Positions 15,507-32,195 of a DNA stretch of 32,889 nucleotides are shown piece by piece. Position 1 is the stretch's first letter, and each line of letters opens with the position of its first letter. Under the pieces are notes generated by a model that was not told the DNA's origin, did no database searches, and saw nothing but the letters and a program-made list of their open reading frames with translations. Where the stretch lies: the IMG/VR virus record IMGVR_UViG_3300002092_000022, positions 1-32,889 of that record; one strand, written 5' to 3'. Made by a program: the position numbers and the translations under genes. Origin of the DNA: a virus.

Positions 15507-15522
15507 TGATCTATCGGCGTGA
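15507..15522 (-). promoter_or_regulatory. Motif i, copy 1: TCACGCCGATAGATCA.
   Basis: Embedded in the inverted repeat AATCTGAT-N15-ATCAGATT. Heads the 15012/terL operon. Confidence 0.55.
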
Positions 15523-15538
15523 TAAATCAGATTCGCAA

Positions 15539-15880
15539 CTAAATCTTTGATAAATCTTTTTGTAACCAATCAGGCTCTGAAGAAGGATCCATCGCCACGC
15601 ATATAGCAAGAGCATTAGCAACCGCTGGGTTACTACCGTCAGTCACTTCAGCCGCTGCCTCTTGCATTGTTAAGTTGTAAGAAGTCAGCACGTCCGACGC
15701 ACACTTGAGTTCCGCCTTCGCTGTAGCAGGTAACACAGTGCTAACCGTGTTAACCAATTCTTCAACGCCGCTCGCAGTAATCGTTGAGACAATCCCCAAT
15801 AACCCTGCTGCCATAATCAGTTCGGTAACAGTGAAACCCTTGTTGCCATGCTTCCTAAGCTCGTTGATTCTCTTGATCAT
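15539..15880 (-). CDS. Membrane protein with a prepilin-type (class III signal) N-terminus. Holin-like position.
   Basis: MIKRINELRKHGNKG/FTVTELIMAAGLLGIV matches the G-F-T-x-x-E + hydrophobic motif. GGGAGG lies 7 nt upstream of the ATG. Last gene of the lysis cassette. Confidence 0.6.
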   Translation of the reverse strand: MIKRINELRKHGNKGFTVTELIMAAGLLGIVSTITASGVEELVNTVSTVLPATAKAELKCASDVLTSYNLTMQEAAAEVTDGSNPAVANALAICVAMDPSSEPDWLQKDLSKI

Positions 15881-16352
15881 TTGATGCCTCCCTGGCTATC
15901 CCGGACGGTGTTGTCCAGAACGGCTCTAACCATCGGCGGTCACCCGCGGCCACAGCGACGAACGCTGCTAACTGCGAACAAACAACCGTCCTCGTATCAA
16001 GGCAAACTCGCTCAACCCACTTAGGACGAAACCCGAGGATCGAGATAGCCAATGCAATGAGATCAATGAAGCCATACGGTTTCCCAAGATGCTTAACCGC
16101 TTCAGCCAATGCTTCCGTCCGGTCACCCTCTAGAGAGATAACGATGTAATCCGAGTATTCATTTAGGGAACCCAAGGCAACACCAGTAGGACACGCTTCA
16201 ATGATCATCTTGCCGTATACGTGAATCGCAACATGGTTATAACGCCAAGCGTCAGTAGAGTGATCATCTATCCACTGTGCCCCGCGGATCACCTTCCCGA
16301 AGAACCCGCCAGTACGAATCGCTATTAGGTCACCAGTCTTTAACTCCATCAC
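15855..16352 (-). CDS. Permuted papain-like cysteine peptidase (YaeF/YiiX, NlpC/P60-related). Second cell-wall hydrolase candidate.
   Basis: GDLIAIRTGG..., NHVAIHV (His) ... IIEA ... VCSQLAA (Cys), in the permuted order. Confidence 0.6.
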   Translation of the reverse strand: MMELKTGDLIAIRTGGFFGKVIRGAQWIDDHSTDAWRYNHVAIHVYGKMIIEACPTGVALGSLNEYSDYIVISLEGDRTEALAEAVKHLGKPYGFIDLIALAISILGFRPKWVERVCLDTRTVVCSQLAAFVAVAAGDRRWLEPFWTTPSGIAREASNDQENQRA

Positions 16353-17251
16353 GAAGCCACTTCGAATAAGTCGCTCTTCTTGCCGAGTAACGCGAGAGTC
16401 GTGAACCCTGGTGCCCCGTTAGCGTTAGCTCCCCTGTAACCGCAATCGCGTTGCCAAGCGGCGTAAGCGTTAGAGGTAGCGTTGCCGAAGATGCCATCTG
16501 GGTTCCCTGGATTACGACCAACTTTTGCTAGTGCTTGCTGTAATAGCTTGACTTCAGGGTTAGATTTATTGGGTTGAACATCGGTTAACTTGATTACTGG
16601 CAGAATCGGGCTTGTATGCCCCGTAGAGGCGTTGACTACTGTCTTTGGGGTAATCACCTCAGGAGAACCTGGATCCCCCGCCAAAACCGAACGTCCGCCC
16701 GATTTGGGGGTGTTTAGCCCCGATACACCAGCAAGGAATGACGCTAGCGGGAAGTTCACGCCTGGATCCGTGTGACCACCAGCGATTTGTTTAGCTCGGG
16801 TGATGTCCGCGTGATAGCAGAAGCCACTAGAGACACCATCAAGGATCTGCTTGTCTGATAGGTGTATCGGGGCTATACCGTATGCCTTAGATAATTCAGC
16901 GGAGAGCTTCTCTACTAGAGCGAGTTCACCTCGGCTGTAAGCATCAGCCCATTGAGCTGGTGACTGGGAAGCCTGGCCAGCCAATTCAATGCTGATCGAC
17001 TCTTCGTTGTATTCAGGGTTAGCAACTGCCCACGCGGTATCCGAGTCCTTAACGCTTTGGACTATCTCGTGATTATCAACGCAATAATGCGCGGAAGCCT
17101 CAGGAGCGGTTGACCCGGCGAACCACGATGCAACACTAGACGCGCGTCCATCAGTCTCGGGAGTCTCCATCGTGTGGAGGACAATCATCCTGATCTTCTT
17201 GCCAGCGCGACCTGGCGTGTAATGCTTCGCTTGAATAAAGGGATACGACAC
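16349..17251 (-). CDS. Endolysin: N-acetylmuramoyl-L-alanine amidase (amidase_2/PGRP) with a C-terminal PG_binding_1 domain.
   Basis: IVLHTMETPE...SAHYCVD...ISIELAG motifs, and the C-terminal LLQQALAKVG...PDGIFGNATSNAYAAWQ. I prefer the GTG at 17251 because GGAGG lies 6 nt upstream. The track ORF extends to 17299. Confidence 0.9.
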   Translation of the reverse strand: MSYPFIQAKHYTPGRAGKKIRMIVLHTMETPETDGRASSVASWFAGSTAPEASAHYCVDNHEIVQSVKDSDTAWAVANPEYNEESISIELAGQASQSPAQWADAYSRGELALVEKLSAELSKAYGIAPIHLSDKQILDGVSSGFCYHADITRAKQIAGGHTDPGVNFPLASFLAGVSGLNTPKSGGRSVLAGDPGSPEVITPKTVVNASTGHTSPILPVIKLTDVQPNKSNPEVKLLQQALAKVGRNPGNPDGIFGNATSNAYAAWQRDCGYRGANANGAPGFTTLALLGKKSDLFEVAS

Positions 17252-17313
17252 GGGGAACCTCCAGAGATACCAGTAACCCGTGCCTGAAACCAGTAACACG
17301 AGCGTTGTTACCT

Positions 17314-17337
17314 CTATTAGTGCGGGCTAGTGTCCGC
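17314..17337 (-). promoter_or_regulatory. Motif ii, copy c: GCGGACACTAGCCCGCACTAATAG.
   Basis: About 62 nt upstream of the endolysin GTG. Confidence 0.55.
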
Positions 17338-17350
17338 ATAGAATCCCTAC

Positions 17351-17902
17351 ATGACTGATACTGATCAAGCTACTAAAGAAAAGTTTATGAAGGAGTGCTT
17401 AAAGATTTGGAACGCAATACAGACTGCAAACGCGATCGAGACACGCTGGGGGTATTTTATTTACAATGATCTGGCCACCACGGTTAGCCCAGGGGATATC
17501 TACCTAGAGGATTACGGCGATCAGTTTCTTCTCTTCTCGCTTGAAGCACTAACGATTGCACGCGAAGAGGAAACCAATCTCGATAAGTTAAATTGGATTG
17601 ACGCGAATATTGAGCTAGCCACGGAAGACCGTGCTAACAAGGCTACCGCTCAAAACATCATCGACTCGTACAAGACTTTGGTAGAGGCGCATAAAGAAAC
17701 TTTTAATTATTTAGATCAAGTGTATGTGCGTGATCGTAAGAGTGACCTAGAGAAAATTTCTGGAATCGGCTTTGTTGAAAAACAGTTAAAAGACTTGATG
17801 CTAAAAAGTAGTTACGATCACAGAACTGCTGAGATTGCTTATGCGTTATCTGCGAGGCCGATAGGTACTGGTAACCAAGAAAACAAAGGGGATCCAGAAT
17901 GA
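17351..17902 (+). CDS. Acidic protein, unknown function (plus-strand accessory gene).
   Basis: 183-aa ORF, AT-richer than the flanking sequence, coupled to the next gene by an ATGA overlap. Confidence 0.6.
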   Translation: MTDTDQATKEKFMKECLKIWNAIQTANAIETRWGYFIYNDLATTVSPGDIYLEDYGDQFLLFSLEALTIAREEETNLDKLNWIDANIELATEDRANKATAQNIIDSYKTLVEAHKETFNYLDQVYVRDRKSDLEKISGIGFVEKQLKDLMLKSSYDHRTAEIAYALSARPIGTGNQENKGDPE

Positions 17903-18252
17903 ACACGGCATCAGCGGACGAATTTAATAAACTACTCGCACTAGAGAAGGCTCACTACTACGTGAGCACCTACCCAAATAACCTAATTGTTACTCGCAAT
18001 ACTTTAGACATGATGAAGCTCAAGAAGATACAGCCAGAATCCTGCTGCGTTATCGGAGAGTTCTTCCTGCTTGACTACGTTAACGAGGATGAGGTCTTAG
18101 GTGGCTACTGCCCGAATGCGATCATCGCCATCGTTACTTGTACCGCGCTAACACAAGCGAGAGCCGAGGCTTCCCTGGAAACCAAGGTAGCCATCGCTTT
18201 AACACTCAACGGTAAGCCAGCACCAGCACCATGGGCAGAAAGTGCCCTATGA
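17899..18252 (+). CDS. Small protein, member D of the four-member paralog family.
   Basis: Shares LLALEKAH... and ...ALTQARAEASLETKVAIAL with the ORFs at 21261, 22115 and 22305. Confidence 0.6.
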   Translation: MNTASADEFNKLLALEKAHYYVSTYPNNLIVTRNTLDMMKLKKIQPESCCVIGEFFLLDYVNEDEVLGGYCPNAIIAIVTCTALTQARAEASLETKVAIALTLNGKPAPAPWAESAL

Positions 18253-18526
18253 GGGGCGATCTATTTAACATAGTTCAGAGTAAGAGTACAGAGACAACTG
18301 CGTGACTAACGCGGTTGTCACAGCGTGACAGGTATTTACTAATCACCAACAAGACTGTTCCTAGAAGCCATTCTCAGCAGACCAATCCAAAATGCTAAAA
18401 AGTAGCAAAAACAGTGTAAAAAGTTGAGCGTGAAAACGCTGTAGGAACGATCCTAAGGGCTCGAATTTTTAGGGGTGCAGGTATTCTACCCCGCTAAATT
18501 ATTGAGCCTATTTTGAGCATGAAAAA

Positions 18527-18617
18527 GCCCCCAATCAGGACTCGAACCTGAACCTCACTTCTAGGGTTGCAACCACTTGGGTTCCTAGAAGCTGCTCTGC
18601 CATCGAGCTCTTGGGGA
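18527..18617 (-). tRNA. tRNA-like gene with canonical acceptor, D and T arms but a 26-nt anticodon loop. Isotype undetermined; may be intron-containing, degenerate or a decoy.
   Basis: My hand fold gives: acceptor TCCCCAA/TTGGGGG, D arm GCTC-GATGGCA-GAGC, T arm TCAGG-TTCGAGT-CCTGA, anticodon stem GCTTC/GAAGT enclosing 26 nt. No CCA is encoded. Confidence 0.6.
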
Positions 18618-18675
18618 CTTCTATCTAATAGCCTGCACATGATGCTAAGCAACAGAGATGCAGGCACTGACAACT

Positions 18676-19233
18676 TTAACTATCGGCGTCAATTTCTTGG
18701 TTCTCTTGGATTACAGGTAACACTGGACCGATCCCGCTCAACTCATTCGCTAATCGCAGCAAGTCCGCATCGGTAACCGTGGAGACCTGCGACTGCATCG
18801 GACCGCCATCAGGGCCGCTGAGTTCAACCTTCTGAACATTCTTCCCGAACTCATCAGGCCAACCTTTTTCTAGCAAGAAAGTGTTAGCCGTAACTGAACC
18901 ATTCTTAGCAAGGACCCGAAGGTTCCCCAGGAACTCCTGCTTGTAAAACGCTCTCGCCCGCTCAATCGCGTCCACGAAGTTGACATACACGTCATTCTTA
19001 GGATTCGGACGCGCCTCTTTCGGAGTAGCAGCACGACCCTTAGCATCAAAGTCATCCCAGGCTTCCCGGATAGCAGACTCAGCATTACCAATCGACTTCC
19101 ACTTATGGAAAACCGAAGGCGAAATACCAGATAACCGAGCCGAGTCAATAATAGACATACCATTCACGACACGAGTCGTAATCTCCTCAGCCAGCTCAGC
19201 TGTAGGTTTTGGACGGAAAGATGATTTAGTCAT
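18676..19233 (-). CDS. terS: Terminase small subunit candidate (HTH DNA-binding protein).
   Basis: N-terminal HTH (MSIIDSARLSGISPSVFHKW) and the block ...ANTFLLEKGWPDEFG, which is typical of small terminases. Lies 3.6 kb from terL. Confidence 0.6.
   Translation of the reverse strand: MTKSSFRPKPTAELAEEITTRVVNGMSIIDSARLSGISPSVFHKWKSIGNAESAIREAWDDFDAKGRAATPKEARPNPKNDVYVNFVDAIERARAFYKQEFLGNLRVLAKNGSVTANTFLLEKGWPDEFGKNVQKVELSGPDGGPMQSQVSTVTDADLLRLANELSGIGPVLPVIQENQEIDADS
18680..18695 (-). promoter_or_regulatory. Motif i, copy 2: AAATTGACGCCGATAG.
   Basis: Lies in the last codons of terS (..EIDADS*), with 62 nt between it and the tRNA-like gene. Confidence 0.55.
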
Positions 19234-19237
19234 ACAC

Positions 19238-19260
19238 CTAATAGTGCGGGCTGGTGACGG
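19238..19260 (-). promoter_or_regulatory. Motif ii, copy d: CCGTCACCAGCCCGCACTATTAG.
   Basis: Ends 4 nt before the terS ATG, so the transcript may be leaderless or nearly so. Confidence 0.5.
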
Positions 19261-19264
19261 AAAA

Positions 19265-19324
19265 TGTTATAAATTGTTATCAGGTTTTTGTTAACACCTG
19301 TTAACCCTTGATAACTTTGATAAC
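19265..19324. repeat. Six helically phased copies of TG(T/A)TA(A/T)C.
   Basis: Copies start at 19265, 19275, 19289, 19299, 19309 and 19318 (spacings 10, 14, 10, 10, 9). The first four are in the TGTTAxC form and the last two are TGATAAC (inverted sense). Confidence 0.7.
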
Positions 19325-19347
19325 CGAAAAACACAGAAATCCAATAA

Positions 19348-19367
19348 TCACGCCGATGTATCTATCA
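19348..19367 (+). promoter_or_regulatory. Motif i, variant copy 9 on the plus strand: TCACGCCGATGTATCTATCA.
   Basis: The only plus-sense copy. It precedes the plus-strand gene at 19406. Confidence 0.4.
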
Positions 19368-19405
19368 GCAAGTCAAAAGAACTTGCACGACAGAAAGGCA
19401 GTCAG

Positions 19406-19732
19406 ATGTTTGGAACCGTGTATGTAGATACAGAAAAAGAAACTAAAGACTATATAGAAAGCAAACCAACTATCAAAGTGTGGATGGTAAATATCTTCGG
19501 CTCTTCTAAAACTTATAGAAGCAGCTTCATTTTCTTATCTGAAGAAGATGCGAAAAAATACGTTATCGAAGAATTTATAAAGAATCAATATGCAAGGTAT
19601 CTAAGTAATCTTCAAGAGGTGGGCAGGGCTCTAGTATTCTCAATGGCTAGGAATAATGATTCGATCAAATATAGACTCCGAAGTACCTTTTTAGTCACAG
19701 ACTTAGAAAGATACTTCGGAGTCTATATTTGA
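19406..19732 (+). CDS. AT-rich moron-like gene, unknown function.
   Basis: 108-aa plus-strand ORF, visibly AT-rich, followed by its own strong hairpin terminator. Confidence 0.55.
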   Translation: MFGTVYVDTEKETKDYIESKPTIKVWMVNIFGSSKTYRSSFIFLSEEDAKKYVIEEFIKNQYARYLSNLQEVGRALVFSMARNNDSIKYRLRSTFLVTDLERYFGVYI

Positions 19733-19803
19733 TAAAGCTATAAAAGTATTGAGAAATGAAGTTGAAATAATCGAAAAGTACACCTGCTAAACCCCGACAT
19801 AAA

Positions 19804-19836
19804 GAAGGCCCGCGATCATCGTGATCGCGGGCCTTC
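19804..19836. terminator. Bidirectional hairpin terminator between convergent genes.
   Basis: Perfect 15-bp stem GAAGGCCCGCGATCA/TGATCGCGGGCCTTC with a 3-nt loop. Confidence 0.8.
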
Positions 19837-19897
19837 TTGCTTGTGCGCTTTACTTTAAGGTTTTCCAGTAACTTATTCGGCTATTGAATAATTCCAG

Positions 19898-20461
19898 TTA
19901 ACCCTGCAACACTTCCACTTCAGCCATAGAGATAGCTGTTCGATACTCGATCCCCTCGACAACGAGATCCGAAGCTACTCCAAGCAGGCGAGCCCTATCG
20001 CGAGTGGGTGATTGGATTCCAGGGTCAGCCAGATTCCAAGCAACCCAAGCAGGAAGCAGTGCTCCGAAGAGCTCAGCATCAACACCATAGGTCAATGTGT
20101 TCAAGCGGTCACCAGGTATCGCGATCATCGCCTCGATATAGACGCCGTCAATATGTTGCATTGTGTCATCTATACGCACAAACTGCGTCTTAGGATCCCA
20201 AGGTGAAATAGCTTGCGTCTTAGCCAGAATTGATCGCGCGAGACGCAGTTGCTTCTCCAGTGCCTTGTCACCAGGTTCACTACAGATTCCCCAAGTGCGG
20301 ACTTCTAGGATCGCCAAGGTTTCAATGGGTCCAGAATTATGCTCGCCAATATGCCGAGAAATATGGTGACACTCTCTAACTTGCAGGGGAGTCGGGATTG
20401 TCGGGATCCCAGTCATCATATCGCGTTCAGGAAGATGCGGCCAAGGCTGTGAGTTACTCAT
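19898..20461 (-). CDS. Hypothetical protein.
   Basis: 187-aa ORF, the first gene of the leftward early block. Confidence 0.6.
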   Translation of the reverse strand: MSNSQPWPHLPERDMMTGIPTIPTPLQVRECHHISRHIGEHNSGPIETLAILEVRTWGICSEPGDKALEKQLRLARSILAKTQAISPWDPKTQFVRIDDTMQHIDGVYIEAMIAIPGDRLNTLTYGVDAELFGALLPAWVAWNLADPGIQSPTRDRARLLGVASDLVVEGIEYRTAISMAEVEVLQG

Positions 20462-20501
20462 ACCCTAAGTATACCGGCTTTTGTATATCGGGGCTATACG
20501 G

Positions 20502-20891
20502 TTACTGGTTACCAGTTACAGTGTTAGGTGTTGAGGTCTTAACAGTTACTTGAGCGGAGTTGATGTTGCGAGTCTGGTAGCCGTATTCATTGAAGCCCAA
20601 TGGTGCACTTGGATACACGGCAGGCTTGATGGCTGGAGTTGTATACACGCGCTTAGCATTCAAGCATTGACGGCACGTCCTGCGACCAGCTGAATTTACG
20701 ATCGTATTCTCTGGGGTGTATTCGTGACCCTCGGGGCACTTAGTTACTAACTGACCTGACTTTGGACCGCGACGCAAGTTATACCGAGCACGACGAGCCT
20801 CGATGCCAGTTAAGTGCTGAAGTTCCTTTAGCTTCTCAACGCGAGCCATCTCGTCCAAGTATTCGCTGTAGTCATTATTTTCGATAGCCAT
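20502..20891 (-). CDS. Zinc-ribbon / HNH-like domain protein.
   Basis: CPEGHEYTPENTIVNSAGRRTCRQC motif. Confidence 0.55.
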   Translation of the reverse strand: MAIENNDYSEYLDEMARVEKLKELQHLTGIEARRARYNLRRGPKSGQLVTKCPEGHEYTPENTIVNSAGRRTCRQCLNAKRVYTTPAIKPAVYPSAPLGFNEYGYQTRNINSAQVTVKTSTPNTVTGNQ

Positions 20892-20892
20892 T

Positions 20893-21264
20893 TTATTTGC
20901 TCCTTATTTTTCCTTTAACTTGAACACCTAGTGGCTCTAGATAAATATGAAAATCTTGAACCGGGATTTTCTTGCAACCTAATTCTTTAAGCAGTGGGTC
21001 AAAGGACCCGTTATCAAATACCCTAGAAACATCTAGCAAATTAGGATTCTTTTTTTTCTCTGGAGGCTTTCCTCTGTATATGAACTCACGGACTGTTGTA
21101 TAGAAATACGCCCACTCGCTCCCATAGAGTGATCCTTTACTGCGGTCATCAGAACAGAACTTCTGTGCATCTTCTACTGAGAGCATGAACTTGATGCCCG
21201 AGTTCTTTCCAGACTGCCCTGCGGTATAGAGGAATGCGAGATTATCCATCGTGAAAGCACTCAC
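20893..21264 (-). CDS. Hypothetical protein.
   Basis: 123-aa ORF, AT-rich, tightly packed. Confidence 0.55.
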   Translation of the reverse strand: MSAFTMDNLAFLYTAGQSGKNSGIKFMLSVEDAQKFCSDDRSKGSLYGSEWAYFYTTVREFIYRGKPPEKKKNPNLLDVSRVFDNGSFDPLLKELGCKKIPVQDFHIYLEPLGVQVKGKIRSK

Positions 21265-21545
21265 TTCTTGTCTCCTCCCATCACTAACGCAACAGCCACC
21301 TTGGTAGCCGGGTCAGCCGATGCTCTCGCTTCAACCAAGGTAGGACAGGGGTCAGAAAACTTAAATATCTCAGTCCTTGGGATTGGGTGTGAACAGTAAA
21401 AACATAAAAGACCTATACCTGATTTATCTTCACTAAATGTATAACCCCAATTACCCTCGTGTTCTCGTTCTATGGCTACCAGGTTATCCACGGCCTCCGC
21501 GGAATAAGGGACAGTGTCCATTTTGGTGTCCATTGGGCTAGTCAT
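21261..21545 (-). CDS. Small protein, paralog family member A.
   Basis: NLVAIEREHEG ... DPCPTLVEARASADPATKVAVAL. Confidence 0.6.
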   Translation of the reverse strand: MTSPMDTKMDTVPYSAEAVDNLVAIEREHEGNWGYTFSEDKSGIGLLCFYCSHPIPRTEIFKFSDPCPTLVEARASADPATKVAVALVMGGDKK

Positions 21546-21726
21546 TAAAGGCCTTCAAACCTAAAGCAGTGGCAAATACCCATATGATTGACGCATTGAA
21601 GAAAAAGAAGGCCTCGTTAGTTCTAAAGTCAGTTGTATGTTGAAAATCAAGTTGGACAAAGAATATAAAACCAACAATCAAAAAGAATTGAATAGCAAAT
21701 GTTAGATACCCAAATATTCTTTTCAT
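21538..21726 (-). CDS. Small two-TM membrane protein.
   Basis: 62 aa with two Phe-rich hydrophobic segments. Overlaps both neighbours. Confidence 0.5.
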   Translation of the reverse strand: MKRIFGYLTFAIQFFLIVGFIFFVQLDFQHTTDFRTNEAFFFFNASIIWVFATALGLKAFND

Positions 21727-22303: not shown

Positions 22304-22304
22304 A

Positions 22305-23714: not shown

Positions 23715-23757
23715 TTTGTTTTCCTTTGATCATCTATAGGCCTCCCTGACCTACACC

Positions 23758-23777
23758 TGATCTATCGGCGTCAATTT
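23758..23777 (-). promoter_or_regulatory. Motif i, copy 3: AAATTGACGCCGATAGATCA.
   Basis: 47 nt lie between GCCGATAG and the HNH gene ATG. It directly follows a terminator. Confidence 0.65.
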
Positions 23778-23800: not shown

Positions 23801-23843
23801 AAAAAGAAATCCGCCCCGGGAGAAAGGTTAAGAACCGGGGCGG
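23801..23843 (-). terminator. Rho-independent terminator.
   Basis: CCGCCCCGG / CCGGGGCGG 9-bp stem followed by ATTTCTTTTT on the minus strand. Confidence 0.85.
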
Positions 23844-24731: not shown

Positions 24732-24776
24732 TTTGTTTCCCTTTTCTCTCTTTGTAGTAGCTCTCTGCCCTACACC

Positions 24777-24796
24777 TGATCTATCGGCGTGAATTT
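24777..24796 (-). promoter_or_regulatory. Motif i, copy 4: AAATTCACGCCGATAGATCA.
   Basis: 49 nt upstream of the ATG at 24731. Confidence 0.6.
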
Positions 24797-24827
24797 CAAG
24801 AAATCGCAAGAAATCTCAAAAATCTTT

Positions 24828-25688: not shown

Positions 25689-25731
25689 TTTGTATTCCCT
25701 TGATCATCTATAAGCCTCCCTGACCTACACT

Positions 25732-25751
25732 TGATCTATCGGCGTCAATTT
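25732..25751 (-). promoter_or_regulatory. Motif i, copy 5: AAATTGACGCCGATAGATCA.
   Basis: 47 nt upstream of the initiator GTG. It starts directly after the stop of the upstream gene. Confidence 0.65.
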
Positions 25752-26297: not shown

Positions 26298-26315
26298 GGT
26301 GTTCCTCTCGATGCT

Positions 26316-26335
26316 CTATCTATCGGCATGAGTTT
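26316..26335 (-). promoter_or_regulatory. Motif i, copy 6: AAACTCATGCCGATAGATAG.
   Basis: 22 nt upstream of the Ntn-hydrolase ATG. Confidence 0.55.
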
Positions 26336-26402
26336 TTCTATTTGTTTTCCGTGTCTTTTCGCTGTTTCTTCTCGTGTCAGGCCAACCCAGTAGACTTGGT
26401 TT

Positions 26403-27302
26403 ATGGCAAACAAGGGGAGCGAGCGGGATCCCCTGCGGCCCTTCCTTCGTTGGGCTGGCGGTAAGCGGAAACTGCTACCGACGCTGTTGAGCCTTGTGCC
26501 AGAGGATCACTCTCCTAAGGCTCGCGTGTATGAGCCGTTTCTCGGAGGCGGTGCCTTCTCGATTGCGATGGCTTCCCAAGGGATACCAGGCAGGAGCCTC
26601 TACCTCAACGACAGCAACCCTGATTTAGTTTTGGCATACCAGGCAATCCGTGATGAGCCAAGGAAGTTGATGACCCGGCTCGACAAGATTTCTCAACATC
26701 TTAACCAGGACGAGTATTTAGCCGTCAGAGCAGCACGTCCGAAGGACTCAATTGAGAGAGCCGCTCGCTTCATCTACTTGAACCGAACTTGCTTTAATGG
26801 ACTATGGCGCGTCAATTCGTCTGGTGAATTCAATGTGCCTTTTGGCAAGCTTGATAATCCGCTTATCTATGATGCTGATAATTTTCTAGCGCTTCATCAA
26901 GTATTACAGAAGGCGACTGTTACCTCAGTCGGTTTTGCTAACGCAGTTGAGTCAGCGCGTCCGGGAGACCTTGTATACCTGGATCCTCCATACCTTCCAC
27001 TAACGACGACAGCTTCATTCTCTGCTTATGCGCGTGATGGATTTGGATTGCTTGATCATTATGCGCTTGCTGGAGTTATTGCTGGGCTTAGTGATCGCGG
27101 AGTTAAGGTGATCCTGTCTAACTCGGATACCCCTGCGACCCGCAAGATCTTCGGTGAAGTCTTGGACCTTCACACTATATCTGTAGCGCGGAGTATCTCT
27201 GCTAAGGCTTCTTCTCGCGGCAATGTTGGAGAATTGATCGGTGTTAACTATGCGATCCCGGTTGCATCAGCGCTGCGCGAAAGTAGGATTGCCTCCACTT
27301 AA
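26403..27302 (+). CDS. Dam-family (D12 class) N6-adenine DNA methyltransferase.
   Basis: FLRWAGGKRKLLP, EPFLGGGAF (AdoMet-binding motif) and LDPPY (catalytic motif). Confidence 0.9.
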   Translation: MANKGSERDPLRPFLRWAGGKRKLLPTLLSLVPEDHSPKARVYEPFLGGGAFSIAMASQGIPGRSLYLNDSNPDLVLAYQAIRDEPRKLMTRLDKISQHLNQDEYLAVRAARPKDSIERAARFIYLNRTCFNGLWRVNSSGEFNVPFGKLDNPLIYDADNFLALHQVLQKATVTSVGFANAVESARPGDLVYLDPPYLPLTTTASFSAYARDGFGLLDHYALAGVIAGLSDRGVKVILSNSDTPATRKIFGEVLDLHTISVARSISAKASSRGNVGELIGVNYAIPVASALRESRIAST

Positions 27303-27319
27303 CTTTCTTCGGAGGCGTA

Positions 27320-27766
27320 ATGGTTCCACGGGACACAACAACTGGAACCGCTTATGAAGCGATAGTCGAAACTTGTATCACTCGGGCATCCAAGAAGTAC
27401 GGCTACGATGCGCAGCAGCACGTCAATATCGGCGTGAAACCAGGTGGCGGTAATCATATTATCGACTGGGAATTATCGGATAAGAATGATCCTGATCGAC
27501 GTGCATTAGTATCTTGTAAGTATCAGGGAACCTCTGGAACCGCTGAAGAGAAGATCGCATATGAAGTAATCAAGTTGTTACACGCTATGAAGATGAATCC
27601 AATATACAAGCACGCGTGGCTTGTTATGGGCGGCACTGGTTGGAGTCCCGGCATGGTTGAGTTCGTTAAGAATCACTTGTTTGAATGGATACCGGAAGCC
27701 AAAGGGAAGATCACTATCTTCACTTCTACCGACGAGTTAGTTACTACCGAGATTCAGATACCCTAG
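27320..27766 (+). CDS. Small nuclease candidate (possible type II restriction endonuclease partner of the MTase).
   Basis: 148 aa, starts 17 nt after the MTase stop with GGAGG 5 nt upstream of its ATG. The IIDWE...LVSCKYQGTSGTAEEK stretch is loosely PD-(D/E)xK-like. The fold is not confirmed. Confidence 0.4.
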   Translation: MVPRDTTTGTAYEAIVETCITRASKKYGYDAQQHVNIGVKPGGGNHIIDWELSDKNDPDRRALVSCKYQGTSGTAEEKIAYEVIKLLHAMKMNPIYKHAWLVMGGTGWSPGMVEFVKNHLFEWIPEAKGKITIFTSTDELVTTEIQIP

Positions 27767-28459
27767 AGATGATTGCTTAATCTCTGCTTGAAGTATTTCT
27801 ATAGCTTCCGCTTCTAATTTTTTAACTGTTTCTACGTTCATCTGAAAACGTTTTGCTATTTCTGCTGTTGTCTTCATGCTTCCAGTAGTAAACCCAAAGC
27901 GAAGGTCAATCACCTTGCGTTGCCGTGGATTCAGGTGAACCAATGCCGCTCTGATTTCCCTATACATTTCTGCTGTCATGGCTTCCATCTCAGGCGTCTC
28001 CTCTTGATCGTTGTGTGAGTCGTATTTTTCGATTTCGATGAAGCCATCATGTTGATATGGCCAAAGTTCAATAACTTTCTTCTTGCTGAATTTTAAGTAA
28101 CTAGCTACAGCGTCAATCGTGTTATGCCCAAGTTTTACTGCTTCACGTATCTTGCGTAGTTCTGGTTCCAATTTATCTGGAATCCGTACAAGCAAAAGTG
28201 ATTTCTTATACTCATCATCTAACTCATACTTGATGATCAATCGCGCGTATGCGGAGAAAGGACCGCGAGTCTTATCCCACTTCTGAGCAGCAAGACAGAG
28301 CCCTATATATGCTTGAGAGGTTAGTTGCTGGTTCTCCAGGTCATCTTGATAACCACCGGTTTTCTTCCAGTAACTTTTAGCCATCGACTCAGCAATCCAG
28401 AGGTTCTCTTCTACCAGTGCTTGCTGTGCCTTAGTGAGCTTCTTTGGATTACTGGGCAT
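27737..28459 (-). CDS. Sigma-70 family sigma factor, group 3 (FliA/SigD/WhiG-like in size and architecture).
   Basis: Region 2 (LVEENLWIAESMAKSY...AYIGLCLAAQKWDKTRGPFSAYARLIIKYEL), region 3 (VRIPDKLEPELRKIREAV) and region 4 (LNPRQRKVIDLRFGF...TAEIAKRFQMNVETVKKLEAEAIEIL). Confidence 0.85.
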   Translation of the reverse strand: MPSNPKKLTKAQQALVEENLWIAESMAKSYWKKTGGYQDDLENQQLTSQAYIGLCLAAQKWDKTRGPFSAYARLIIKYELDDEYKKSLLLVRIPDKLEPELRKIREAVKLGHNTIDAVASYLKFSKKKVIELWPYQHDGFIEIEKYDSHNDQEETPEMEAMTAEMYREIRAALVHLNPRQRKVIDLRFGFTTGSMKTTAEIAKRFQMNVETVKKLEAEAIEILQAEIKQSSLGYLNLGSN

Positions 28460-28691
28460 AGGTTTGGACAGGATTCACCGTGAAGTAATCCGACATCTTC
28501 AAGTCAGCACCGAGGAGATCTTCTAGTTGCTGAGCGAAGATTGGGATGAAGCTATCTAGCGGTTGGTCGCTTAGGTTCGCATCGGTTGCCTGGTAGGTAA
28601 AGGTTCGATACTCGATTTCCTTTACGCGGTTCTCGACATCTTCTCTGAATCGTGCGCTATCAAAAGTAGCGTCTACCATCTCAACTGCCAT
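28449..28691 (-). CDS. Acidic 80-aa protein, unknown function, co-transcribed with the sigma factor.
   Basis: Overlaps the sigma gene start by 11 nt. AGGAGG lies 6 nt upstream of its ATG. Confidence 0.55.
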   Translation of the reverse strand: MAVEMVDATFDSARFREDVENRVKEIEYRTFTYQATDANLSDQPLDSFIPIFAQQLEDLLGADLKMSDYFTVNPVQTYAQ

Positions 28692-28703
28692 TGCGTGCCT
28701 CCT

Positions 28704-28724
28704 ATATAGGTGTGTTACCTATAT
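28704..28724. promoter_or_regulatory. 8-5-8 palindrome ATATAGGT-GTGTT-ACCTATAT (operator candidate).
   Basis: Read directly. It lies between the promoter-like motif at 28721-28740 and the RBS of the 80-aa/sigma operon. Confidence 0.55.
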
Positions 28725-28740
28725 CTATCGGCATCGCTTT
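28721..28740 (-). promoter_or_regulatory. Motif i, copy 7: AAAGCGATGCCGATAGATAT.
   Basis: 33 nt upstream of the ATG of the 80-aa/sigma operon. TAAA lies 16 nt upstream of GCCGATAG. Confidence 0.6.
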
Positions 28741-28766
28741 TATAATTCTTTATAGTTTTTAGATTT

Positions 28767-28793
28767 GTTAGATATGTTAGATATGTTAGATAT
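28767..28793. repeat. Three perfect tandem copies of GTTAGATAT.
   Basis: Read directly. A degenerate TAGAT lies just upstream at 28760-28764. The last copy ends on the first base of the xis stop-codon triplet (28793-28795). Confidence 0.85.
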
Positions 28794-28978
28794 CAGTAAT
28801 CCGCCCCAGCGTCGGCCCACTTAGCAAGGTAGTTGTCGATGTCCTCGCGTGTGTAGCGGACGAGTCGTCCTATGCGATGGCAGGGGAAGATTCCCATTGT
28901 CGTGTGACGCCGGATAGTGATGAGGCTGAGGTTTAGAAGTGTTGCTACCTGGTCTGCTGTGTATGCGATGTTTTCCAT
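28793..28978 (-). CDS. xis: Excisionase-family HTH (MerR/AlpA-like) DNA-binding protein.
   Basis: YTADQVATLLNLSLITIRRHTTMGIFPCHRIGRLVRYTREDIDNYL. Adjacent to attP and int. Confidence 0.7.
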   Translation of the reverse strand: MENIAYTADQVATLLNLSLITIRRHTTMGIFPCHRIGRLVRYTREDIDNYLAKWADAGADY

Positions 28979-29027
28979 ACGGCAGCCATCGGCGCCCTGT
29001 TACACTCAGCCAGCGAAAAAAAGACTG

Positions 29028-29049
29028 TTGCCCTATCTTTTGCCCTATC
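29028..29049 (+). repeat. Left arm repeats: TTGCCCTATC x2, 12-bp period.
   Basis: Read directly (29028-29037 and 29040-29049). Confidence 0.85.
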
Positions 29050-29111
29050 TACGGACATGCCCTGATATCTCAGGACATCTCAAGATAGAAAAAGCAGTAA
29101 ATATCGCTATT

Positions 29112-29157
29112 GCGCTCGTAGCTCAACGGATAGAGCTTCTGACTTCGGATCAGTGGG
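29112..29157 (+). other. tRNA-Arg(UCG)-like 5' half: acceptor 5' strand, D arm and anticodon arm. No T arm.
   Basis: GCGCTCG-TA-GCTC-AACGGATA-GAGC-T-TCTGA-CTTCGGA-TCAGT. The downstream sequence has no T arm or acceptor 3' strand. Confidence 0.65.
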
Positions 29158-29187
29158 TTTACTTAGAGATTAAGTTGATAAGAAACT

Positions 29188-30654
29188 TCAAATTGTTAGT
29201 GTTTTACGCTTACTTTGGGCGATTTTCTTCTTTTTCGCAGGAGGTCTAGCAGCCACTGTTGCCCTATTTATTGCCCTATCGGGGCTAACTGCTACCTTTT
29301 TAGTCCGTTTCGTCCCTTTTACTCTTAGTGCTTTTGCTGCTTCTGGGAATTGAGTAGTCCAGGCTTCCCATAGGGCATCAAGTCTAGCGGCAGTAGAAAG
29401 TGTCTGATCGATTCTGAGTTGCATTCTTGCTGGATCCTGGTCTTGAGAGTTAAAGGCTCGCAGGTAATGGGTTGCCGTTACTTTTATATCTGAGTGGCGC
29501 AGGTATACGGCAATCTCAACCGCAGTCGCCCCAGCGTCGGCTAGCACGGATGCTGCGAACGCTCTTAGGTCTTTTACTCGTAATCCTCTACTACGAGGAT
29601 CGGCAGTTGGACGAGTTGGGTCTCCGTCCAAACCGGCAGCCTGGCGAGCCGGTATCCAAACATTCCGTCGGAAGTTTGAATGATCCATTATTCCAATAGA
29701 TCCAGCACGGTCATTTGTTACTGGAGAACGGAATAGGAGATTACCTGCAATATCGTTTGGTTCAGATTTAGATAATCGTTCATCTGCAAGTATGCGTAAG
29801 CGTTCCCATAGTTGTCTTGGTATTGGAACAGTTGCTGTTTGTCCAGCCTTTGGAGGCTCGGATACCCATTGGTTCATATGCGACTTTGATAAGACTCGAC
29901 TTATCGATATCGCTGGTTTATCTTTCCAGACTGATCTCGCTTCAAGAGATATTGCTTCACTCCAACGCAAACCAGCCCAAGCCATCAAGGCAATCAAGAT
30001 CCTGTCATTTACTTCTTGCGGTGTCTGGACAATTTTTGCGAGCTCACTCCAGGTTGGAAGTAATACGGGGCCAAGTGGCTGATCGCTAGCTCGTTTGAAT
30101 TTAGAAGTAGTGATGCGGACTTTCCTAAAAGGAGATACCGCGAGCCTTCCCTCGTTTACCTCCCATGAGAGTGCTGCTGAAAGTAAGCGTCTAGCAGCGT
30201 TTATCGTGGGTTGACCCACACCTAAAGTTGTTAAGTCATCCATCCAATTAGAGATGCCAAGTGGTGTTAAGCGTGCAATGGCAACTTCCCCGATATTGGC
30301 ATCGGGTCTAATAATCGTTGTAGTTAGGACGGATTTGTATCCGCGAATCGTTTTGCCAGCTAGAGGTGCTCTTGGGTCTGTAGTTCTAAACGCGATGTAA
30401 TCCTCAACTGAGTGTCGGACGCGTCTAACTGGGCCGCCAGGTCTACCGCTGGGAGCAGCAAGCCTTCCATTATCTATATCAGCAATATGTGCTGAGAGAG
30501 CTCGTCTTGCGAGAGTCTTATTAGGGAAGCGTCCAGGTATTGAAGTGCGTTGACCGCGTTGGCATAAGCGTGGTGGTAGCAGGGCTATCCAGGAGCCGGA
30601 GCCTTTCCGTGGTGTCTCTTTAACCGTGCCTTCTACACCGCTCTTGCGTGCCAT
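29188..30654 (-). CDS. int: Tyrosine recombinase (phage integrase).
   Basis: AWAGLRWSEA (Arg I), KDLRAFAAS, and YLRHSDIKVTATHYL (His...Tyr). N-terminal SAM-like domain and a basic C-terminal tail. Confidence 0.9.
   Translation of the reverse strand: MARKSGVEGTVKETPRKGSGSWIALLPPRLCQRGQRTSIPGRFPNKTLARRALSAHIADIDNGRLAAPSGRPGGPVRRVRHSVEDYIAFRTTDPRAPLAGKTIRGYKSVLTTTIIRPDANIGEVAIARLTPLGISNWMDDLTTLGVGQPTINAARRLLSAALSWEVNEGRLAVSPFRKVRITTSKFKRASDQPLGPVLLPTWSELAKIVQTPQEVNDRILIALMAWAGLRWSEAISLEARSVWKDKPAISISRVLSKSHMNQWVSEPPKAGQTATVPIPRQLWERLRILADERLSKSEPNDIAGNLLFRSPVTNDRAGSIGIMDHSNFRRNVWIPARQAAGLDGDPTRPTADPRSRGLRVKDLRAFAASVLADAGATAVEIAVYLRHSDIKVTATHYLRAFNSQDQDPARMQLRIDQTLSTAARLDALWEAWTTQFPEAAKALRVKGTKRTKKVAVSPDRAINRATVAARPPAKKKKIAQSKRKTLTI
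29259..29280 (+). repeat. Right arm repeats: TTGCCCTATT and TTGCCCTATC, 12-bp period, inside the int 3' coding region.
   Basis: Read directly. The first copy of each pair shares the extended 13-mer ACTGTTGCCCTAT. Confidence 0.85.
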
Positions 30655-30936
30655 CTAATTGGTTCCCAAGTATTTGTCGGTGTTTCCGCTCATCCCGTTG
30701 AGTATCTGGTAGACGCGTGCTTTCTTGACGCCGATCATTTGTCCTATCTCATCGTAGGAGTATCCATTGGCTACGAGTTCGGTGACTGCTTCCCTTCGGA
30801 TTACTTTGGCATCCATTTCAGCAGCTGCTAGTGAGAGTAGGAGTTGTGTTGCTTCGGTTGCTCGCTTCTCTGGGTTGGGGATCTTGGTGAGCCTTGTGAG
30901 CTGGGCTTTAATCTGGTCACGTTTCTCCGTTGCCAT
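30655..30936 (-). CDS. HTH DNA-binding protein directly upstream of int, a possible lysogeny regulator.
   Basis: ELVANGYSYDEIGQMIGVKKARVYQIL. Its stop abuts the int start. Confidence 0.6.
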   Translation of the reverse strand: MATEKRDQIKAQLTRLTKIPNPEKRATEATQLLLSLAAAEMDAKVIRREAVTELVANGYSYDEIGQMIGVKKARVYQILNGMSGNTDKYLGTN

Positions 30937-30994
30937 AGGTTAAGTGTATCCCTGCTTCACGCACCGGTATAGCAGTCTGTGCTGACAATTGGAA

Positions 30995-31020
30995 GAGCCC
31001 CCAGGTTTCCCTAGGGGCTC
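30995..31020 (-). terminator. Hairpin after the exonuclease gene (terminator candidate).
   Basis: GAGCCCCCAGG / CCTAGGGGCTC: an 11-bp stem with one mismatch and a 4-nt loop. Only a weak T-tract follows. Confidence 0.55.
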
Positions 31021-31043
31021 CAAGTATATCAGGGATATACGGT

Positions 31044-31859
31044 TTAGATAGCGCGAGTGATCGTGCGATCCTTTACGTGAGTCAATCGGTTCCAAGCGCC
31101 ACAGTCACCGCACTGGAATCTCGCATAAGCAGATACAGCCGTGTGATGGAACCCAGCGTGCTTAAGACTTGTTGAACCACATCTATAGCAGCAACGCTCT
31201 CCCGTCCAGAGTCCAATATGAGGGAACTGGGTCGCCTTGATCCAGGGACCAAGGTAATCAAAGAGAGCCTCTGTTAATACAACATCGCCAATATTGTATT
31301 TCTTCATTAGGTTCCAAGCCTTATCATCACCTTCAAGAACCTTATTCCAAAGTTCTTGTCCGGTGTGCTTCACCTTAGAACCGAGACCAAGTGCTTGAGC
31401 TACATAGTCCAACTTATTGGACGGAAACTTAAACATTCCACGAGCAACCATTAAGAGATCACAAGTTTTCACTGGGCTCGGAGGTGTTAAGCCTTCGAGG
31501 ATAAATTCACGGTTAAGCCATTTCATATCAAAAGACTTGTGGTTATAGCCAACAACAATGTCGGCTTCGTCAATGAGTCTCCAGGCTTCCCTAATCATTT
31601 GCTTGCGTGTGTCGTGATGCTCTGAGAAGAACATTGTCTTTTTCTCACCATACCATTTAGCAGCGAAGCAGAGCATGCGACCGTGATCAACGATTTGGCT
31701 GATTGAGTGATTCTGGTCAAATAGGCCCCAAGAATAAACCATCATTGGAGCAGTCTCGATATCGAGTGTGAGGATCTTTGGCATTCCGCCAGTTAGTGTC
31801 TGGAGGTGCTTAGTAGCTACTGGCTTTAGAATTACGTCTAGGCGGTTATCTTTTTTCAT
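31044..31859 (-). CDS. DnaQ/DEDD-type 3'-5' exonuclease (RNase H-like fold) with a C-terminal zinc ribbon.
   Basis: LTLDIETAP (Exo I), VGYNHKSFD (Exo II), KYNIGDV (Exo III), and CCYRCG...CGDCG. Confidence 0.75.
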   Translation of the reverse strand: MKKDNRLDVILKPVATKHLQTLTGGMPKILTLDIETAPMMVYSWGLFDQNHSISQIVDHGRMLCFAAKWYGEKKTMFFSEHHDTRKQMIREAWRLIDEADIVVGYNHKSFDMKWLNREFILEGLTPPSPVKTCDLLMVARGMFKFPSNKLDYVAQALGLGSKVKHTGQELWNKVLEGDDKAWNLMKKYNIGDVVLTEALFDYLGPWIKATQFPHIGLWTGERCCYRCGSTSLKHAGFHHTAVSAYARFQCGDCGAWNRLTHVKDRTITRAI

Positions 31860-31861
31860 TA

Positions 31862-32140
31862 TTAGTTACCTGCCTTTTCGCATAGGCAAATACCGTCGCG
31901 ATGATTTTTTAGTGAGTTCCATCCACGACCAGCGAGTCCTGCTTTAAGGATCATTGTTTGGATCGTTGTAATTCCGATATTTGGGTTACCAATGTGAGCT
32001 GCAAATGCTGAAGCATGTGGTTCAGGTAGGTCAGCTATTAGCTTTCCAACTGTGCACATCTCCCTAACTTCAGTGATTGGTGCTTGGATTAGAGCATCAA
32101 GATTTATTTCCTTTACTTTTATTGCTTTCTTCTGGGCCAT
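31862..32140 (-). CDS. Hypothetical protein.
   Basis: 92-aa ORF with AAGGAAACGAAA upstream of the ATG. Confidence 0.55.
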   Translation of the reverse strand: MAQKKAIKVKEINLDALIQAPITEVREMCTVGKLIADLPEPHASAFAAHIGNPNIGITTIQTMILKAGLAGRGWNSLKNHRDGICLCEKAGN

Positions 32141-32185
32141 TTTCGTTTCCTTCTATTAGCAAACCTGAATGGTTTGATATGAGGG

Positions 32186-32195
32186 ATATCGGCGG
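32186..32195 (-). promoter_or_regulatory. Motif i, weak copy 8: CCGCCGATAT.
   Basis: 45 nt upstream of the ATG at 32140. Confidence 0.4.

Follow-up and report, generated by a model that had tools for sequence, protein, structure and literature searches.

Which factor reads the early promoters of a small temperate phage whose recurrent upstream motif resembles a sigma-28 −10 box, when the only sigma factor that can be recognised in its genome does not resemble sigma-28? The question is raised by the viral record IMGVR_UViG_3300002092_000022 of IMG/VR, the whole of which (32,889 nt, here called the window) was analysed. A sequence-only reading of the window had listed seven strong and three weaker copies of an element with the core GCCGATAG upstream of early genes, the sigma operon, the terL operon and a tRNA-like gene, and had proposed that they are promoters read by a sigma-28-family factor, most simply the one encoded at 27737-28459. 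Here we show the motif to be an oriented signal close to genes, functional and kept in diverged relatives. The sites that carry it, termed class I, are best described as a phage-specific promoter family that has no −35 element and whose extended −10 resembles that of sigma-28. The phage, an uncultured temperate actinophage, encodes a rare, truncated, primary-like sigma factor.

Class I sites and their conservation

Exact GCCGATAG has nine matches on the two strands of the window against 0.92 expected, and none of 100 shuffles reaches nine. Six of the nine lie fully inside non-coding DNA, which makes up 7.8% of the genome (binomial P = 1.6e-5). Moreover, eight of the nine sit 22-62 nt ahead of a gene or RNA start, the copy at 8353 being the sole one deep in a gene. 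The core belongs to a consensus block of ~20 bp, aAAAwTSAY-GCCGATAG-ATmw, further upstream of which no column is conserved.

The sigma factor of the window is a rare one: among 5.8 billion protein clusters searched, only three relatives were found (54%, 47% and 27% identity). Loci for comparison were obtained from the contigs of sigma relatives, from one metagenome hit (L008) and from one TerL hit:

L006: 6 kb, 39% G+C; sigma 47% identical
L008: 9.8 kb, 41% G+C; sigma 45% identical
L009: 18.6 kb, 42% G+C; TerL 65% identical; sample shared with L006
L007: fragment of 941 nt, 35% G+C; sigma 54% identical

The core recurs in these relatives ahead of the sigma, 178-aa (amino acid), replication initiator, 44-aa, HNH and terL-leader units and of two further genes, and the intergenic flanks around the cores have diverged between window and relatives. 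Across the aligned sites of window and relatives, GCCGATA(G/T/A) is found in 15 of 16, and GCCGAT(A/G)(G/T) at 8 sites. A position matrix was trained on eight sites of L006, L008 and L009 only and is hence independent of the window. It recovers exactly eight window sites, with scores of 18-34: the seven strong copies and one plus-strand copy at 19352. The next best window position scores 9.4, while the top score per shuffle averages 11.7 and is 21.4 at its highest (100 shuffles). All eight lie a short way ahead of the next gene or RNA and point in its direction, the plus-strand site included, as the sequence-only reading had held for its copies. Class I consists of eight strong sites and two to three weaker ones, listed here with the remaining copies of the core:

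28725..28732, minus strand: core GCCGATAG, 33 nt ahead of the 80-aa gene and sigma operon; matrix score 25.0; orthologous to L008 5880 and L006 246
26320..26327, minus strand: core in a divergent intergenic region, 22 nt ahead of the 181-aa gene; score 21.1; ortholog L008 6726, reading GCCGATAT, with the 22-nt spacing unchanged
25736..25743, minus strand: core 47 nt ahead of the replication-initiator gene (HTH_36/DnaD-like); score 33.8; ortholog L008 7403
24781..24788, minus strand: core 49 nt ahead of a 44-aa open reading frame (ORF; 24597-24731), followed by the 214-aa gene; score 26.9; orthologs L008 8272 and L006 2630
23762..23769, minus strand: core 47 nt ahead of the HNH gene that heads a 12-gene operon; score 28.9; ortholog L006 4229, in a divergent region
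19352..19359, plus strand: core variant GCCGATGT with full ATCAC…AT flanks, 46 nt ahead of the plus-strand 108-aa gene; score 21.5
18680..18687, minus strand: core that covers the final codons and the stop of terS, 61-62 nt ahead of the tRNA-like RNA gene; score 27.6
15511..15518, minus strand: core followed by a non-coding RNA or leader that is conserved and by the 106-aa, terL and portal genes; score 18.3; ortholog L009 6719
17857..17864, plus strand: exact GCCGATAG in the last part of the 183-aa ORF, its flanks poor, 34 nt ahead of the 117-aa gene
32186..32193, minus strand: weak copy GCCGATAT with poor flanks, 45 nt ahead of the 92-aa gene; matrix score below 8
28986..28993, minus strand: degenerate core GCCGATGG, exactly 7 nt ahead of the ATG of the excisionase-like helix-turn-helix (HTH) gene, without a Shine-Dalgarno sequence
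8353, minus strand: exact GCCGATAG deep within an ORF

Much of the first description survives this comparison. The seven strong copies are real (15511, 18680, 23762, 24781, 25736, 26320 and 28725, all on the minus strand), with the earlier coordinates of six of them reading 4 nt lower, at the low end of the 12-mer GCCGATAGATCA. The distances it gave from core to start codon for six protein genes are 22, 33, 46, 47, 47 and 49 nt by our measurement as well, and the copy at 18680 does lie within the end of terS at the distance claimed from the tRNA-like gene. The flanks described as usual are found in part only, the prefix AAATT(G/C)AC in 4/7 strong copies and ATCA after the core likewise in 4/7. 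Its three weaker copies fare differently from one another: 19352 is a full member and 32186 a weak one, and the copy at 20485 (CCCGATAT) is not a member. It forms the middle of a palindrome, GTATAGCCCCGATATAC, which is itself conserved and precedes an ordinary TATACT-N6-ATG promoter by 9 nt. Absent from that list were the exact copies at 8353 (minus strand) and 17857 (plus strand) and the degenerate core at 28986.

The copy at 17857 is probably a functional member of class I, because its position matches that of a site at L009 3405, between the homologous first genes of the cassette and the second gene (the 183-aa protein is homologous to one of 167 aa in L009). Likewise, 32186 is probably a weak member since its L008 counterpart reads tcacGCCGATAC at the equivalent place. 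At the excisionase-like gene L008 keeps both the core and the 7-nt spacing.

Wider searches added little to these loci. In tblastn of the sigma factor against phages all matches were at or below 34% identity; scans of IMG/VR with the sigma and with the replication protein found none, and the sigma alignment found none in GTDB genomes and a single new locus, L008, in metagenomes. The pattern TTGACGCCGATAGATCA gave two loci, L004 and L005, the L004 match falling inside a 1049-aa ORF, and the pattern TCACGCCGATAGAT gave at least 119, the core-richest of which are ordinary coding DNA without flank conservation; the matches to both patterns were put down to chance. Among the TerL relatives L010-L029 there is no enrichment of GCCGATA.

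Promoter function and start point

Class I sites precede the sigma operon, the replication genes, the long HNH-headed operon, one plus-strand gene, the tRNA-like RNA and the conserved non-coding RNA before terL. Their setting argues for a start signal acting at the level of DNA, because a strong terminator ends ~32 nt upstream of the 23762 core, because the sites at 19352, 26320 and L006 4229 lie in divergent regions with no same-strand gene upstream, where that strand is antisense to other genes, and because two copies precede non-coding RNAs (18526-18618 and 15409-15502). The terminator is as follows:

23801..23843, minus strand: intrinsic terminator, 9-10 bp G+C stem and U-run, −21.5 kcal/mol

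Moreover, matches to the sigma-70 consensus promoter are not enriched in the window (17 found against 23.8 expected), and so no rival promoter candidate is available in the short gaps before genes. The sequence-only reading is supported in treating the motif as a promoter element: it is gene-proximal, oriented and conserved at orthologous positions in the manner of a −10-type element, and class I sites almost certainly are the promoters of the early and middle transcription units of the phage.

The likely start point can be approached from the spacing. At the excisionase-like gene of both lineages, GCCGATGG-N7-ATG is found without a Shine-Dalgarno sequence, and the 7 nt vary in sequence but not in length. 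This arrangement parallels the leaderless TANNNT-N6-ATG promoters of the same genome (described below) and suggests that transcription starts ~8 nt after the core, which is the sigma-28 register. The 22-nt spacing from core to ATG is likewise kept between the 181-aa gene and its 178-aa counterpart. Hairpin stems, read by eye from computed folds, begin 6-9 nt after the core at most sites, the sites at 26320 and L008 6726 being without one, and between the HNH orthologues the changes in the stem look compensatory when read from the sequences rather than counted by a tool.

Likeness to sigma-28 promoters

The core matches the sigma-28/WhiG −10 element, GCCGATAA, at seven of eight positions, including the key CGA. 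That consensus has CGA at its centre (PMC12784957, PMC12871210), and in the sigma-28 open complex it occupies −15 to −8 with A-11 flipped (PMC12784957). Sigma-28 promoters (FliA, SigD and WhiG) read TAAA-N15/16-GCCGATAA, or T(A/C)AA-N16-GCCGATAA for actinobacterial WhiG2. The phage core, GCCGATA(G/T/A), shares the invariant CGA, the start suggested above would fall in the −15 to −8 register of the solved open complexes, and the GC at its 5′ end could serve as an extended −10.

Upstream of the core there are differences. The −35 element is highly conserved in actinobacterial WhiG regulons (PMC12871210). At the phage sites, by contrast, T(A/C)AA at a spacing of N13-19 was found in 1 of 16 (window and relatives), namely at 28725, the only site with TAAA at N16, and in the aligned sites no column is conserved between −40 and −14. 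The sequence-only reading had itself cautioned that TAAA at N15 is not conserved and that the conserved block abuts the core instead; on both counts it was right, the block being AAAWTSAC. Since a properly spaced T(A/C)AA occurs at a single site and AAAWTSAC lies directly against the core, class I is not a canonical sigma-28 promoter. The phage regulon differs too in being a set of early genes, not flagellar or developmental ones, and the sole sigma factor encoded nearby fails the FliA/WhiG family model.

Two other ways of placing the motif on a promoter were rejected. TTGAC as a −35 element would call for a −10 box 17 bp downstream, but a TANNNT is absent at that distance, and at the 26320 copy the gap is too short to hold one. 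The core itself cannot be a −35 element, given distances of 7 and 22 nt to ATG. In the mechanism that we propose, GCCGATAG would be an extended −10 element in the sigma-28 register, covering −15 to −8 with the flipped A at −11. Transcription would start ~8 nt after the core, most transcripts would open with a stabilising hairpin, and, with no −35 element, specificity would come from the A-rich block abutting the core.

The phage sigma factor

The genes of the sigma operon and the repeats at its promoter are as follows:

27737..28459, minus strand: sigma-70-family gene, 240 aa, with regions 2-4 and no region 1
28449..28691, minus strand: gene for an 80-aa acidic protein, its stop overlapping the sigma start; no family match
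28759-28791, minus strand: ATCTAACA direct repeats, upstream of the 28725 core

Regions 2 and 4 place the protein in the sigma-70 superfamily. Pfam Sigma70_r4 matches at 3.5e-11 (42.9 bits, cutoff 24.1) and Sigma70_r2 at 7.4e-5 (22.9 bits, just below the cutoff of 24), and TIGR02937 scores 77.7 bits, above its cutoff of 42.9. The NCBIfam model FliA_WhiG (TIGR02479), however, gives 31.1 bits against a cutoff of 189.6, as compared with 70-78 bits for generic and primary/RpoD-type models. Among solved structures its nearest matches are SigA/RpoD chains, cyanobacterial and other, and the matches listed (60 of 61 PDB matches) include no FliA chain. The FliA/WhiG signature, Y-A-x-x-R-I-R-G-A-M-(L/I)-D-E…D-W-x-P-R-S, is seen in 6pmi, 9wsf and 6pfv; its equivalent in the phage protein is Y-A-R-L-I-I-K-Y-E-L-D-D-E…L-V-R-I-P-D-K, in which only D(+11)E(+12) is kept. 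Moreover, the R-I-P motif is primary-sigma-like, and the equivalent of Trp434 is Ile, not Arg as in group 3 sigmas. By these sequence features the phage sigma is of a truncated primary-like type and not FliA-like, and the assignment of 27737-28459 to the sigma-28 family is not supported.

One residue merits separate mention. FliA D81 and Pa D87 contact the C-G of CGA, where sigma-70 has Arg (PMC12784957). The invariant D82 of the phage sigma aligns with them, which is suggestive. The protein is also without region 1.2, the part that forms the T-7 pocket.

The 80-aa protein is ~84% identical over the 64 residues present in L007 (2-196; our own count), against 54% for the sigma factor, and could be a sigma partner or an anti-sigma factor. 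Neither L006 nor L008 has it; in both, the sigma frame continues further upstream with no canonical start codon, behind an upstream ORF of six codons. At the promoter of the sigma operon, and only there, three to four 9-bp direct repeats were seen, (T)ATCTAACA in the window and ATATAACA in the relatives (L008 about 5830-5875), and an 8-bp palindrome, ATATAGGT-N5-ACCTATAT, begins directly after the 28725 core. Repeats and palindrome together suggest special regulation of the sigma promoter.

Other promoters, a palindrome and non-coding RNAs

A second motif, GGAC(A/G)C-N6-GCACTAWTA on the minus strand, was designated class II. Its GCACTAWTA part occurs five times against 0.59 expected:

19239..19247, minus strand: GCACTATTA, 5 nt ahead of the terS ATG; L009 1817
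17315..17335, minus strand: GGACAC-N6-GCACTAATA, ahead of the endolysin operon; L009 3978
9816..9836, minus strand: class II motif ahead of the major capsid gene
6711..6731, minus strand: class II motif ahead of the major tail gene
7375: fifth copy of GCACTAWTA, inside a gene

Class II is kept in L009 ahead of terS and of the gene in the endolysin position, and is the probable late-gene promoter class. A scan with the terS pattern returned only the contig of L009 itself and one unrelated contig of 53% G+C. We also tried class II as a sigma-54-like promoter (GG-N10-GC) and rejected it, no enhancer-binding ATPase being found among the ORFs searched; to our knowledge, actinobacteria lack sigma-54.

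Four promoters are of the host type, TANNNT-N6-ATG, none of them with a Shine-Dalgarno sequence:

30943..30948, minus strand: TACACT, 6 nt ahead of the ATG of the 93-aa gene and integrase operon; conserved in L008
20468..20473, minus strand: TATACT, 6 nt ahead of the ATG of the 187-aa gene; TATAAT-N6-ATG in L009
17339..17344, plus strand: TAGAAT, 6 nt ahead of the ATG of the 183-aa gene
26391..26396, plus strand: TAGACT, 6 nt ahead of the ATG of the Dam-like methyltransferase gene

Two of the four are conserved in relatives, and by their form they can be read as actinobacterial-style leaderless promoters. The normal promoter type of the host is thus present in the genome, and classes I and II are both foreign to it with only one recognisable phage sigma to serve them.

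Two host-type promoters are adjoined by a conserved palindrome, which is a candidate operator and recurs at L008 3223, L009 1195 and L009 6842 (terL leader):

20483..20499 and 31024-31040: palindrome GTATA-N7-TATAC, 17 bp, the first copy holding the rejected class I copy at 20485

Two non-coding features follow class I sites:

18526..18618, minus strand: tRNA-like RNA gene with an 8-bp acceptor stem, a canonical GTTCGAGTC T-loop/T arm and an oversized anticodon arm, then a T-run
15409..15502, minus strand: G+C-rich non-coding stretch of ~95 nt, just downstream of the 15511 promoter; L009 about 6735-6830

The tRNA-like gene of the sequence-only reading stands in a qualified form: ARAGORN at default settings calls no tRNA here, and calls this one only if an 11-nt 'intron' is allowed or the threshold is lowered. 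Together with its class I promoter it is absent from L009, where terS ends earlier. The stretch at 15409-15502 is far better conserved with L009 than its surroundings, a run of 32 nt being identical though TerL is only 65% identical. It may fold as a structured RNA, or it may serve the packaging operon as a regulatory leader. A search of the whole window against Rfam at E ≤ 1 found no family.

Genome, attachment site and host

Positions 1-101 of the window are identical to 32789-32889, an exact terminal direct repeat of 101 bp; the window is hence a circular assembly of 32,788 bp (47.4% G+C), and a 322-aa tail-fibre-like gene crosses its junction. It represents a complete genome of a temperate siphovirus-like phage. 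Contigs of ~32.8 kb that carry the same genome are present in SRR5247223 and in two 'GROS21-1' metagenomes of ENA, and no GenBank phage gave a megablast match to 15000-32889. Nearly all genes are on the minus strand; in order of transcription they are:

minus strand: 92-aa gene, exonuclease, 93-aa gene, tyrosine integrase, excisionase-like HTH gene, 80-aa gene, sigma-70-family gene
plus strand: Dam-like methyltransferase, PD-(D/E)XK nuclease
minus strand: 181-aa gene, replication initiator (HTH_36/DnaD-like), 44-aa and 214-aa genes
minus strand: HNH gene with eleven small genes (the 12-gene operon), 187-aa gene
plus strand, 108-aa gene; minus strand, terS and tRNA-like RNA; plus strand, 183-aa and 117-aa genes
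then the endolysin operon, the non-coding stretch, 106-aa gene, terL, portal/MuF, capsid, major tail and tail genes

The attachment site lies within the first of these groups:

29112-29153, plus strand: attP core, between the integrase gene and the excisionase-like and sigma genes
29028-29037, 29040-29049 and 29271-29280: arm-type repeats GATAGGGCAA

Three actinobacterial metagenome-assembled genomes have an intact tRNA-Arg(TCG) gene whose 5′ half is identical to the 42 nt of the attP core, and two of these three loci have 47-48% G+C, similar to the phage. Because of this match and this base composition, the host is probably a low-G+C freshwater actinobacterium. It is unusual for a phage to carry the 5′ half of a tRNA gene at attP; the relative L008 has instead the 3′ half of tRNA-Arg(ACG). 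Integration at attP would split the sigma operon from the promoter on the integrase side.

Two further observations concern gene content. In a comparison of the window with L006, L008 and L009, the window, with its genes for the Dam-like methyltransferase and the PD-(D/E)XK nuclease, has slightly more GATC sites than expected (180 against 142). In the relatives GATC is ~two-fold depleted (16 of 29.5, 27 of 59.5 and 8 of 18.6 expected), and there is no methyltransferase/nuclease insertion between the sigma and 178-aa genes. Class I sites of the window read GATAGATCA, which contains GATC; those of the relatives mostly read GATAGATAT or GATAGATAA. Moreover, the following gene encodes the motif GHEYTPENT…GRRTCRQC, which we take to be typical of small zinc-finger/HNH-like proteins common in actinophages and consistent with the host phylum:

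20502-20891, minus strand: 129-aa protein gene

Which factor reads class I

In our judgement the chances are about even that the phage sigma (27737-28459) reads class I. The reader would then be host core RNA polymerase carrying this truncated primary-like sigma, not the FliA or WhiG of the host, which is the least certain step of the mechanism. The first sigma molecules would arise by read-through from the host-type TACACT-N6-ATG promoter at 30943, via the 93-aa, integrase, excisionase-like and 80-aa genes; such read-through could supply them because no terminator-like site was found on the minus strand between 30654 and 28460. The class I site at 28725, ahead of the sigma operon, would then give positive feedback. 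We favour the phage sigma because the −35 element is missing, because a private upstream block is shared across lineages that differ in G+C and att tRNAs, and because of D82. Sigma and motif are, moreover, conserved together in every lineage found. The host may be guessed from its G+C content to belong to the Nanopelagicales, possibly without any sigma-28; members of that group are non-motile and have 2-4 sigma factors (PMC12817590).

Several points weigh against the phage sigma as reader and against the start point assigned above. The sigma operon carries a class I site as does every early unit, and a pre-existing host reader would be simpler unless read-through occurs. Class II, ahead of the terS, endolysin, capsid and tail genes, needs a reader as well and competes for the sigma. 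In most phages a phage-encoded sigma serves the late class. The likeness to the WhiG-type −10 in a phage of an actinobacterium would be a notable coincidence, and it favours a WhiG-type reader from the host. Within the phage protein, most of the residues by which FliA recognises its −10 are missing: the equivalent of R74/R80 is Ile, and the residue after the conserved Pro (FliA R91/R97) is Asp. As to the start, the outer stems at some sites begin 1-2 nt after the core and would, if formed in the RNA, imply an earlier one, and the positional evidence is all indirect and sequence-based. Lastly, the comparison covers two diverged lineages and one fragment of 941 nt.

The leading alternative, which we consider rather unlikely, is that a host sigma-28-family factor (WhiG or FliA) reads class I and that the phage sigma then reads class II in a two-step cascade. 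It makes direct sense of the core, which is the actinobacterial WhiG −10 at seven of eight positions including CGA, in a phage whose host is itself taken to be actinobacterial. With class I on all early units and on the sigma operon, bootstrapping would be unnecessary. Class II stands ahead of exactly the late genes terS, endolysin, capsid and tail, so that two sigmas would cover both foreign classes and the phage sigma would have the usual role of its kind; the TAWTA of class II is also nearer to a TANNNT box minus T-7, fitting a primary-like sigma without region 1.2. However, the T(A/C)AA −35 element that is so well conserved in WhiG regulons is missing from 15 of the 16 sites, and a different upstream block abuts the core across two phage lineages that differ in G+C and att tRNAs. 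The candidate hosts may lack sigma-28, if the guess of Nanopelagicales is correct. Moreover, any activity of the host factor would switch on the lytic genes, and class I sites show no visible operator.

A more elaborate scheme builds on the phage sigma as reader and is, taken as a whole, doubtful. It is a self-contained sigma switch, in which the sigma reads class I, integration disconnects the sigma operon and lysogeny is held by the absence of sigma. Here a truncated primary-like sigma would have evolved to read the −35-less AAAWTSAC-GCCGATAG and would activate its own operon and all lytic early units. The sole host-type entry promoter would be the one ahead of the 93-aa and integrase genes, and the sigma operon would be physically severed from it when the phage integrates at attP (29112-29153). 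Lysogeny would then be kept largely by the missing sigma and not by a repressor acting on every promoter, while a further step would be required for the late class II promoters.

Readings in which the motif is not a promoter fare less well. An operator or RNA-level role is less likely than a promoter, and an additional, dual role is possible. That the motif acts in RNA, as a processing, stabilising or antitermination site (like nut boxA/boxB) in long polycistronic transcripts, is improbable. It would suit a motif that is always on the sense strand and between genes, with a hairpin within 1-9 nt whose stem varies while its pairing is kept, and most copies do have a same-strand gene upstream. 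Yet three sites lie in divergent regions and a strong terminator stands directly upstream of one copy, the conserved block continues for 10 nt on the upstream side, into an A-rich tract of the sort that promoter DNA typically has, the GCCGATGG-N7-ATG and 22-nt spacings fit a transcription start and not cleavage, and no hairpin exists at 26320 and L008 6726.

It is very unlikely that a repressor or regulator binds the copies, which would then be oriented 'stoperators' of the kind found in Cluster A mycobacteriophages. In favour of this, the motif is asymmetric, ~12-20 bp long and present in many oriented copies in a temperate actinophage, and with no canonical repressor identified among the phage proteins, some unassigned small protein could bind them. 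The sites are, however, confined to 7-62 nt before starts, with one of nine deep inside a gene, and are not scattered through operons. If they were operators, the short gaps that hold them would be left without other promoter-like sequence (sigma-70-type matches, 17 against 23.8 expected), the core matches a known −10 box, and a separate palindromic operator candidate stands beside the ordinary promoters. The weakest idea, recent intragenomic duplication of intergenic DNA without shared function, draws on the ~60 nt (leader included) shared by 23762 and 25736 and on the similar 24781, and we give it next to no weight, since the other copies share only the 20-bp block, which is kept at orthologous positions in relatives of 45-65% protein identity with diverged flanks.

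Comparison with known systems

The titles and abstracts returned by literature searches gave no precedent for a phage GCCGATA promoter family or for this phage-encoded sigma promoter. The system is nevertheless known in kind, a phage-encoded sigma plus private promoters, and does not make a new category. If the phage sigma reads class I, a primary-type sigma that has lost region 1 would have come by convergence to use the CGA-type −10 box that flagellar and developmental sigmas read, with no −35 element, a compact natural example of re-coded −10 specificity. Such a pair of sigma and promoter would be orthogonal in low-G+C freshwater actinobacteria, a hugely abundant group for which there are hardly any genetic tools and only a few temperate phages are known. 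If a WhiG-type sigma of the host reads class I, this would be a rare phage in making its whole early programme depend on an alternative sigma of the host. In both cases a clean map of three promoter classes results (host-type leaderless, class I and class II).

The stoperators of Cluster A mycobacteriophages resemble class I in being many, oriented and asymmetric in a temperate actinophage; they differ in that class I sites stand at promoter positions only, match a −10 consensus and also precede RNA genes. Promoters of T7/SP6-type RNA polymerases are alike in having a contiguous block of ~20 bp that ends in …ATAG and is repeated before each unit. A T7-type reading was rejected, as the window has no gene for a single-subunit or other phage RNA polymerase, its large ORFs being tail, portal, TerL, capsid, integrase and endolysin.

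The closest parallels are phage sigmas with private promoters, such as T4 gp55 (TATAAATA), SPO1 gp28 and gp33/34, and phiEco32 gp36. Here too, a sigma-70-family protein of the phage's own is accompanied by a multi-copy motif unlike that of the host, and, as in the late promoters of T4, this motif is a single extended −10-like block without a −35 element. In contrast to those systems, the sigma gene itself lies behind the same motif, which implies either autoregulation or a host reader. Moreover, the phage is small and temperate, two non-host motif classes are found with one recognisable sigma, and that sigma is a truncated primary-like protein with region 4 intact.

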